From Candidatus Hodarchaeota archaeon (GTDB lineage Archaea; Asgardarchaeota; Lokiarchaeia; Sigyniarchaeales; SOKP01), in contig JBHLJY010000001.1 of NCBI GenBank assembly GCA_048887225.1, positions 288,001 through 352,000 on the forward strand: a stretch of 64,000 nucleotides of DNA. Reading direction: 5' to 3'. Position 1 is the first letter of the stretch. Each line of letters opens with the position of its first letter. The notes below the pieces were generated by a model. The model was not told where the DNA came from, ran no database searches, and was given only the letters and a program-made list of their open reading frames with translations. Shown here one piece after another: positions 32,452 to 47,122 of the stretch. A program made the translations under genes and the position numbers.

Positions 32452-32559
32452 TTTGACATCTTTTCCTTTTAATGATTTATTCTGTATAGAAAAAGTAAAA
32501 TAAAGATCTTTAATTTATTTATAAAAATCATTTAAAAATATAATAAAATGTGATTTGAT

Positions 32560-33374
32560 ATGGATTGGGGAATGAGAAATCGATTTTCTCGAATAATTAA
32601 GCCTAAATCTGGACGCTGTGTTATGTTAGCAATAGATCATGGTTACTTTGGAAACATTCCGGGACAATTAAAGTGTTTTGATGATTTAAATCCATTGTTT
32701 GAATATGCTGATGCATTAATGCTAACTCGTGGAATGCTTAGGAACTGCGTTTCCCCTGAACTAGATATTCCAATTGTTTTGAGGGTATCCGCCGGTGCAA
32801 GTATGCTTAAAGAGCTTTCAAATGAAGAAATCAACGTGGCTTTAGACGATGCTTTGAGATTAAATGTAGCAGCGTTGACTTGTTCCATTTTTGTTGGTGG
32901 AGAATACGAAAAACAAACTTTAATGAATTTATCTAAATTAGTAAATTGGGGTCAGCAATATGGGATTCCAACATTAGCAGTTACAGCAGTAGGGCGTGAA
33001 ATGGTGAGGGATGCTCGTTATTTAGGTATGGCAAGTAGAATGGCTGCCGAAATGGGAGCAACCTTCGTTAAAACATATTATTGTGAGAATTTCGAAGAGG
33101 TCACCAGCATTTGTCCCGCACCAATAGTAATTGCTGGCGGCAAAAAAATTGAGGAAAGAGACGCATTACAAATGAGCAAGAATGCTGTTGATAAAGGGGC
33201 TGTCGGCGTAGACTATAACTATTTTATTTAGTTATAGGCGCATATATGGGAAGAAATATATTCCAATCTGACAGCCCAATCGGTATGATAAAGGCAGTAA
33301 GAGCAATAGTCCATGATAATGTTCCAGTTGATGAGGCTTTCGAAATATATAAAAATGGTCCTAAAGGATTGTAA
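32560..33374 (+). CDS. lsrF: LsrF-like class I aldolase/thiolase (DhnA family), intron-split: exon1 32560-33211, exon2 33244-33374, 260 aa
   Basis: [19 protein letters not shown] Schiff-base Lys, IAGGKK. The conserved tail [27 protein letters not shown] is in another frame after a 32-nt insert. Confidence 0.9.
33212..33243 (+). other. Putative bulge-helix-bulge (tRNA-type) intron in mRNA, 32 nt
   Basis: GCGU(33206-09)/GCGC(33238-41) 4-bp helix, bulges AGA (33210-12) and AUA (33242-44), 9-bp perfect stem CUAUAACUA/UAGUUAUAG; canonical cuts give GUA GAU AUG GGA. Confidence 0.85.
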
Positions 33375-33500
33375 GACTTTTTTTTTTTTCCTTTTTTTTA
33401 TTTTAACACTGAAAGGTATAGTTTTTATCAAGGTTAATTTAATAAATCTTTATTTATTTTTTTCCACATCAAAATGAGATTTATGAGAATATAATTTACA

Positions 33501-34542: not shown

Positions 34543-35592
34543 TTAATGAATTTCTGGTTCAATTATAACTTTCAACGACTCATTAGCATCACATACCACT
34601 TTAAATGCTTCTCCAACTTTACTGAGAGGGAATCGATGTGAAATCAAATCTACTACATTAATTTTTTTTGATTTTATCCATTTGTAAGCTTCATCTAAAT
34701 CTTGAGGAGCTGCACCATATGAAGTCATAATAGTAATTTCATTTCTCCAATAATCATTTATTGGGATTTCTAGGTTAATTCCGGGTTTGGGAACGGCAAA
34801 AAAAATGATTGTACTCCCTGATCCAGCACATTGTAATGCTTGCTTAGCTGCTGATAATGCACCAGTACAAACAATTACAACGTCGGGGGATCTTCCATCG
34901 TTTTTTTTTTTAATCGCTGCTAGAATATCATTATTTGCGTGAATCACTACATCAGCACCAAATTCTTTTGCTTTTCTTAAACGATAATCGCTTATATCCG
35001 TTGTGAATATTCTTTCTACATCTTTAGCTTTTGCTAACATAAGATGCAATATTCCTGAGACGCCACTACCTAATATTAAAAGAGTTTGTCCTTTTGTTAT
35101 TTTAGCTAATCTTTGAGCACGACATACACATCCCAATGGTTCAATAAATACGCCTTCATCATAAGAAACATTTTCATCAAGAAGATATACGCCTTTTTTT
35201 TCTATATTAACAGGCGGAACTCTGAGATATTCTGCAAACCCCCCAGGATCGTAATTTGTGTTGTGAAGCAAATTGCAAGCTGTATGATGCCCGAGTTCGC
35301 AGTAATGACAATTAAAACAAGGAACGTGATGAGATACAAAAACGCGGTCTCCAACTTTAAAATCTTTTACTTCTTCCCCAATTTCAACAATATCACCTGA
35401 AATTTCATGTCCAAGAACAAGACTATCAACACCAAGTTTTTTCATTTTTGCAATACGATAGTATTCTAAAATGTCAGATCCACATATTCCAGATTTTCTT
35501 ACTTTTATTAAGAGCTCCCCAGATCCAATTTTAGGTTTAGGCATCTCATCTTCTATCACTTTTTCATTGTTGTAATATCTTGCGATTTTCAT
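34543..35592 (-). CDS. Zinc-dependent (sorbitol/L-iditol-type) dehydrogenase
   Basis: GICGSD, GHE, CFNCHYC...C, GSGVSG. Confidence 0.9.
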   Translation of the reverse strand: MKIARYYNNEKVIEDEMPKPKIGSGELLIKVRKSGICGSDILEYYRIAKMKKLGVDSLVLGHEISGDIVEIGEEVKDFKVGDRVFVSHHVPCFNCHYCELGHHTACNLLHNTNYDPGGFAEYLRVPPVNIEKKGVYLLDENVSYDEGVFIEPLGCVCRAQRLAKITKGQTLLILGSGVSGILHLMLAKAKDVERIFTTDISDYRLRKAKEFGADVVIHANNDILAAIKKKNDGRSPDVVIVCTGALSAAKQALQCAGSGSTIIFFAVPKPGINLEIPINDYWRNEITIMTSYGAAPQDLDEAYKWIKSKKINVVDLISHRFPLSKVGEAFKVVCDANESLKVIIEPEIH

Positions 35593-47000: not shown

Positions 47001-47103
47001 GGCCCGGTTAGTATAGCGGTTAGTATTGGGGACTGTGAATCCCTAGATGTTCAAGATTTTATCATGAACTGGGGAAAGACGGGTTCGATTCCCGTACCGG
47101 GCC
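47001..47103 (+). tRNA. tRNA-His(GUG) with encoded G-1 and a 30-nt intron at position 45/46 (47047-47076)
   Basis: Acceptor GCCCGGT/ACCGGGC, G-1:C73, anticodon arm GGGGA-CTGTGAA-TCCCT, T arm ACGGG-TTCGATT-CCCGT; insert forms a relaxed BHB (CCCU/GGGG, bulges AGA/AAA). Confidence 0.92.
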
Positions 47104-47122
47104 CTCTTTATTATGTTAAAGG

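Follow-up and report, generated by a model that had tools for sequence, protein, structure and literature searches.

The interrupted lsrF gene and its surroundings

A 32-nt insert at positions 33212 to 33243 interrupts lsrF, the gene for a sugar-phosphate enzyme of the LsrF thiolase/aldolase type, in a genome of the Promethearchaeota (Loki-type Asgard archaea). Positions are those of the window, the whole 64,000-nt stretch of DNA analyzed, and refer to its plus strand unless stated otherwise. The unspliced open reading frame starts at 32560 and has 223 codons, ending at an in-frame TAG (33229 to 33231). Exon 1 (32560 to 33211), assigned from the NCBIfam model NF006081 and motif positions, comprises codons 1 to 217 and the first base of Asp218 and contains the DHG motif, the catalytic Lys171, and the AGG phosphate loop. 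Exon 2 (33244 to 33374) extends from the remainder of Asp218 to the stop codon and carries Gly220-Arg221 and the C-terminal tail. Exon 1 alone scores 322.8 bits against NF006081, the LsrF equivalog, which is above the cutoff of 297, while exon 2, in a second frame from 33246, matches positions 252 to 288 of the same model (E value of 1e-12). The exon 1 score and the presence of Lys171 and Gly220-Arg221 identify the gene as lsrF. In the alignment of an intron-less ortholog with E. coli LsrF (PDB 3GKF; PMC2728841), 254 residues were aligned (E value of 1.6e-91), the catalytic Lys and the phosphate-binding Gly/Arg are conserved, and E. coli Gly253-Arg254, which bind phosphate, correspond to Gly220-Arg221 here.

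Deletion of 33212 to 33243 yields a 260-amino-acid LsrF that reads GVD|MGRN across the junction and regains the phosphate-binding Gly-Arg. When all 32-nt deletions were tried, the invariant D-M-G-R-N was obtained only from this deletion and two shifted equivalents; the boundary drawn by protein homology is therefore the one drawn by the cleavage rule for bulge-helix-bulge (BHB) introns. The first-pass annotation of this DNA had proposed such an intron, and its coordinates, 32-nt length, frameshift, stop codon, 223- and 260-amino-acid products, and GVD|MGRN junction were all reproduced. It had also raised the possibility of an assembly artefact, which was ruled out: an identical lsrF sequence is present in a contig from a separate assembly (Logan, SRR30758827), which may derive from the same sample, and this nucleotide is also occupied by an insert in 12 further orthologs. 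Contigs of a further sequencing run (X1, of unclear kind) cover 32502 to 33010 and thus stop short of the splice junction.

The host genome is 98% complete and contains one close lsrF copy, its two paralogs being merely 26 to 29% identical; among named genomes, most of the nearest orthologs belong to Promethearchaeota metagenome-assembled genomes. Directly behind the lsrF stop codon lies a long T-run (33378 to 33400) resembling an archaeal terminator, placed at the end of exon 2 rather than of exon 1. A Zn-dependent dehydrogenase is encoded nearby (34543 to 35592, minus strand), and a homolog of it lies inside the fetched flanks (mostly 1.5 kb) at 120 of 190 lsrF loci, across phyla. No lsr operon genes, such as those for LsrK and LsrG, the partners of LsrF in AI-2 catabolism, were found among the annotated neighbors of lsrF here, and the conserved pair suggests a two-gene pathway without an lsr operon.

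RNA structure and covariation of the insert

The minimum-energy fold contains the elements of a BHB motif that had been proposed for this RNA: a central helix of 4 bp, two 3-nt bulges, and a 9-bp intron stem with a 7-nt loop. The region from 33190 to 33285 is unusually stable (z score of −4.6; 0 of 200 shuffles equally stable). The exon strand of the central helix H (33206 to 33209) is fully paired with its intron strand (33238 to 33241) through three G-C pairs and one U-G pair. Splicing endonuclease cuts behind the second base of each bulge. Applied to bulge 1 (33210 to 33212) and bulge 2 (33242 to 33244), this rule predicts cuts at 33211^33212 and 33243^33244, the second of which gives back Asp218-Met219. 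Between the bulges lies the intron hairpin h′ (33213 to 33237), in which 33213 to 33221 pair with 33229 to 33237 and the 3′ arm holds the TAG. The intron thus consists of the last base of bulge 1, the hairpin, the 3′ strand of the central helix, and two bases of bulge 2.

One structural detail of the first-pass annotation did not hold. Instead of a weak G-U-rich exon-exon helix, there is just one G-U pair beside the 3′ bulge (one or two pairs in orthologs), so the 3′ cut would need relaxed recognition by the splicing endonuclease, EndA. The fold predicts in its place a long-range exon-exon helix of 9 bp (33197 to 33277, with 33197 to 33205 pairing with 33269 to 33277), which stacks on H and closes a three-way junction with a small exon 2 hairpin. 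Among the features of archaeal BHB introns, the 4-bp central helix, two 3-nt bulges with cuts that restore the host gene, and h′ are all present; helix h flanking the 3′ bulge, which marks the strict hBHBh′ subclass, is absent, and the intron is therefore of the HBh′ class. HBh′ is a recognized relaxed class (PMC5829648; bioRxiv 10.64898/2026.10.13.758758), and by these sequence criteria the lsrF insert would belong to it. A group I or group II self-splicing intron was rejected, as a ribozyme core needs more than about 200 nt and the insert has 32.

The genome has many intron-containing tRNAs. The tRNA-His gene (47002 to 47104), miscalled by ARAGORN, has a 30-nt intron in its variable region (47047 to 47076, placed by hand) that is like the lsrF intron in the first bulge and the U-G closing pair and in little else. 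Descent of the lsrF insert from this intron was considered and not supported, the argument for it being a shared loop, the most variable part among orthologs.

Alignment of lsrF orthologs, which the first-pass annotation had suggested, was informative for both presence and pairing. Among 100 distinct sequences of at least 72% identity, 13 have an insert at precisely this position (32 nt long in twelve and 30 nt in one), 87 lack one at this site, and 78 lack any insert. Four central pairs out of four are formed in 12 of the 13 same-site introns, 96.8% of cells are paired across the set, and 7 of 13 base pairs show double-sided (compensatory) changes. Slid controls were 26 to 43% paired, and 0 of 500 shuffles matched the observed values; these are counts and not probabilities, since the orthologs are related. 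Within helix H, 97.9% of cells are paired and one pair has double-sided changes, a C-G pair of this exon/intron helix being swapped for U-A or A-U. In the h′ hairpin, 6 of 9 pairs have such changes. The same-site introns occur in sequences that are up to 24% diverged.

The coding sequence on both sides of the insert appears maintained. For pairs of intron-bearing genes, dN/dS is about 0.05 (exon 1) and 0.07 (exon 2), values that are approximate because synonymous sites are near saturation, and their dN is similar to that of intron-less genes. By these estimates, exons 1 and 2 of intron-bearing lsrF are under purifying selection, and the neutral decay of exon 2 that would have spoken against splicing was not seen. 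Synonymous positions near the junction are also constrained: third-codon identity among intron-bearing orthologs rises from 0.36 to 0.62 in codons 211 to 220, and these orthologs form on average 5.4 of the 6 core pairs of the long-range helix, versus 3.9 in intron-less ones. The raised synonymous constraint and the long-range pairing may result from selection on the fold or, alternatively, from flanks being carried along with the intron.

The same orthologs bear on whether ribosomes might cross the insert by recoding. In this genome, TAT occurs both after the Asp218 codon and before the Met219 codon, a matched pair on which a hop could act. Matched hop codons are found in just 3 of the 13 orthologs, and a hop would put an extra Tyr into the invariant motif; a −1 frameshift would enlarge the phosphate site by some 11 variable residues; and the one ortholog with a 30-nt insert at the identical site has it in frame but with a stop codon. 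We regard recoding of either kind as extremely improbable.

Other lsrF sites and other interrupted genes

Further inserts of 30 to 36 nt occur at four other lsrF sites: two lie near codons 9 and 22, and two follow the DHG and AGG motifs, respectively. Across the five sites there are 27 inserts, 25 with four of four and 2 with three of four central pairs, all with an internal hairpin, and one ortholog (L028) has three inserts in a single lsrF. All but one of the 27 truncate the protein. The exception (L140:2061-2122) is a 30-nt BHB insert behind the AGG motif; it preserves the frame and contains no stops, such that translation of the unspliced RNA would add 10 residues. Three of the five sites adjoin residues equivalent to those with which E. 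coli LsrF binds the substrate phosphate, namely, the His of DHG, Gly226/227, and Gly253/Arg254 (PMC2728841). Two in-frame TAA codons replace Glu at codons 115 and 117 of one further ortholog (L008, genome G021), which has no insert; this gene may be a pseudogene, an assembly error, or something else.

No BHB-type insert was present in about 80 more distant LsrF homologs (under 72% identity, mostly from other phyla). Of the 60 relatives searched, only members of the host's family had close lsrF orthologs, and the next homologs are from Thermoplasmata and bacteria, from which we infer that lsrF was acquired by this family from elsewhere and that its introns came later. On the gene tree, the intron at 33212 requires at least 10 gains or losses, gain and precise loss being indistinguishable there, and several well-supported sister pairs differ. 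The site-1 introns of two orthologs (L058:1501-1558 and L136:1501-1558) are an identical 30 nt, although their exon branches are 0.2 to 0.26 changes per site; their junction lies within a 7-nt direct repeat. This identity hints at lateral spread, and origin by duplication is also possible.

The at least 10 gains or losses and the occupation of four other sites indicate turnover of nearly neutral introns and argue against a conserved switch. The first-pass annotation had mentioned a regulatory switch as a possible role of the intron. Such a selected, HAC1/XBP1-like switch would itself require splicing and differs from our preferred reading in why the intron is kept. An unspliced product without the phosphate site and the synonymous constraint around the junction speak for it; the turnover, the spread over five sites, sister genes that differ, the large insert-free majority of orthologs, and the interruption of unrelated genes in the same genome make it unlikely.

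The first-pass annotation had also suggested that similar introns may be hidden in "broken" Asgard genes, and candidates were found in rtcB, uL11, and further genes of this genome. The single rtcB locus (C13:33313-34649) is interrupted within GY|DINCG; the insert here measures 29 nt (C13:33458-33486, plus strand) and has four of four central pairs and a 9-bp stem. This insert is common to two of the 60 relatives (G002 and G021), in which the stem varies, and the gene is intact in most. The uL11 gene has a 28-nt hBHBh′ insert with a 7-bp outer helix (C4:65594-65567, minus strand) and, upstream of it, another insert that spans about 36 nt and includes a stop (about 65670 to 65630, minus strand; ends approximate). 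BHB-shaped, stop-containing inserts were located in an acetyl-coenzyme A (CoA) synthetase-like gene (two, at C2:89799-89828 and 89906-89935), a thiolase-like gene (C4:215764-215799), and an acetoacetyl-CoA synthetase-like gene (C1:83789-83818), all on the plus strand, and in a sugar kinase gene (C5:191663-191631) and a cold-shock (Csp) gene (C2:11602-11573), both on the minus strand. Excision of the inserts from these five genes leaves an open frame. With lsrF, the total is about ten inserts in at least eight genes, which is a lower bound.

Systematic searches of the genome, another suggestion of the first-pass annotation, succeeded in part. A motif-first scan for BHB motifs whose removal joins reading frames recovered lsrF and rtcB but was no better than a mirror-geometry control (20 versus 14 and 6 versus 5 sites) and is unfit for counting introns. 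A motif-free census based on tblastn between paralogs, which is blind to single-copy genes, gave 19 candidate inserts, 5 of which had a high BHB score, compared with 1 among 114 shifted controls. The high-scoring candidate at C3:122345 (minus strand) was rejected as a false positive, the end of an EF-2-family gene that runs into an antisense tRNA. Four high-scoring inserts remained, two of them found with relatives as queries.

These genes help to weigh three further explanations of the lsrF insert. A dead lsrF, inactivated by a small hairpin insertion, would account for the frameshift and stop, and the gene is probably dispensable, as searches of other families gave no close orthologs. Set against this are the low dN/dS of both exons and the recurrence of inserts with compensatory pairs at the same base in 13 diverged sequences. 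A MITE or insertion sequence footprint was rejected: there is no second copy of the insert in the genome (best match, 23 of 32), and with only two equivalent placements, there is no target duplication. Like inserts in rtcB and uL11 extend the argument, since RtcB and uL11 are hardly dispensable and dead-gene readings thus fail for the insert class. We give inactivation next to no weight.

Alternatively, two polypeptides might be made without splicing, the 223-amino-acid product assembling into a barrel with a 42-amino-acid piece reinitiated at ATG 33246. Gene callers do call this 42-codon frame, and its ATG lies 14 nt past the stop; that ATG is expected anyway, as the Met following Asp218 is invariant across all intron-less orthologs. 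Moreover, a restart codon is absent at the other four lsrF sites and at the rtcB, uL11, and Csp inserts, though stops are present there, and covariation of the exon/intron helix is left unexplained, so we consider assembly from two pieces very improbable, if slightly less so than inactivation or recoding. Excision from DNA rather than RNA, whether precise or phase variable in part of the population, would fit the patchy presence of the insert and the close sisters that cleanly lack it. The asymmetric bulge geometry, however, fits one RNA strand and includes G-U pairs, no direct repeat flanks the insert here, and most cells could not do without active rtcB and uL11; DNA excision accordingly has hardly any claim on these data.

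Predicted splicing machinery and relation to known mRNA introns

Two EndA genes were identified in the host, one for alpha (around C1:186989) and one for a putative beta (around C3:61052). EndA alpha aligns to the catalytic subunit in PDB 3P1Z and 3AJV over a region that takes in the inserted loop and the catalytic His, and the second gene encodes a separate beta-like subunit without the catalytic His. Judged from sequence, the host enzyme is an (alpha-beta)2 EndA with the crenarchaeal-type L1/CSL loop and its lysine, which would permit relaxed substrates. Asgard EndA has been described as (alpha-beta)2 with the L1 loop, and HBh′ introns as removed only by such enzymes and by the epsilon2 form (PMC5829648); the class of the lsrF intron agrees with this substrate range.

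Every comparative test run upheld the proposal of an EndA/RtcB-type BHB intron in an Asgard metabolic mRNA, and we conclude that the insert is very probably a protein-spliced mRNA intron, cut by EndA and joined by RtcB, with full-length LsrF made solely from spliced RNA. In the proposed mechanism, the lsrF transcript would fold into an HBh′-type BHB braced by the predicted long-range exon-exon helix, and (alpha-beta)2 EndA would cut at the two predicted positions, one in each bulge. RtcB would then ligate the exons, by analogy with the tRNA and cbf5 pathway. Spliced RNA would give the 260-amino-acid LsrF and unspliced RNA the 223-amino-acid product, which lacks the Gly-Arg phosphate site and the C-terminal tail and is presumably inactive. 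The intron would belong to a large set of small and almost neutral introns that turn over in the lineage, with no switch dedicated to lsrF, and such introns may be kept where splicing of the RNA is possible and a conserved motif would be wrecked by imprecise loss. Given the insert in the sole rtcB gene, production of RtcB would itself require RtcB.

The closest known system is the pre-mRNA intron of cbf5, a pseudouridine synthase gene of Crenarchaeota (Watanabe 2002; Yokobori 2009, PMC2738675), the sole archaeal coding-sequence case in the mostly open-access literature searched, where others are "predicted" (PMC2738675). Both genes have a short BHB intron in the coding sequence at a catalytic motif; as in lsrF, the cbf5 motif is often relaxed, the host EndA is hetero-oligomeric, and the intron is gained or lost across relatives (PMC2738675). 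The two differ in phylum, lsrF is an ordinary metabolic gene, and cbf5 presents one site in one gene, compared here with five sites across lsrF orthologs and a genome in which at least eight genes are affected. Splicing of cbf5 was shown by cDNA, while that of lsrF is deduced from sequence. Haloferax HVO_1309 likewise has an EndA substrate within an mRNA, but it is a 46-nt BHB intron in the 5′ UTR, a noncoding position with no reading frame to restore; cbf5 was named there as the only other mRNA example (PMC7714728). Noncanonical tRNA introns of Asgard archaea resemble the lsrF intron in size range, motif classes, and repeated recent gains, and would be cut by the same EndA; the studies of 2024 and 2026 that describe them are restricted to tRNA genes (bioRxiv 10.64898/2026.10.13.758758; PMC11291895), the word "mRNA" being absent from the preprint (bioRxiv 10.64898/2026.10.13.758758).

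Among eukaryotes, HAC1 and XBP1 mRNAs contain a short frameshifting intron that is cut out by protein, and XBP1 is ligated by RtcB. The lsrF intron would share with them the short frameshifting insert, cleavage by protein, and, with XBP1, ligation by RtcB. IRE1 acts on dual stem-loops under signal control (for context on IRE1/RtcB mRNA splicing, see PMC13149111), whereas lsrF has a BHB motif, would depend on EndA, and gives no sign of regulation.

From comparison alone, cbf5-type chemistry would operate in an ordinary Asgard enzyme gene, at five independent sites, and in at least seven more genes of this genome. We lean toward the broader view that Loki-type Asgard archaea routinely splice the mRNAs of multiple genes with the tRNA endonuclease and ligase and that their mini-introns are still spreading, with a hint of lateral transfer. 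If so, mRNA splicing would be a normal step of gene expression in archaeal relatives of eukaryotes, and many Asgard "pseudogenes" or split genes would be misannotated. Sister genomes with and without the intron would then offer a tractable system for the route by which such introns are acquired. On this view, protein genes broken by nonspliceosomal introns, all tied to the capacity of EndA and RtcB, would already be present in the closest prokaryotic relatives of eukaryotes.
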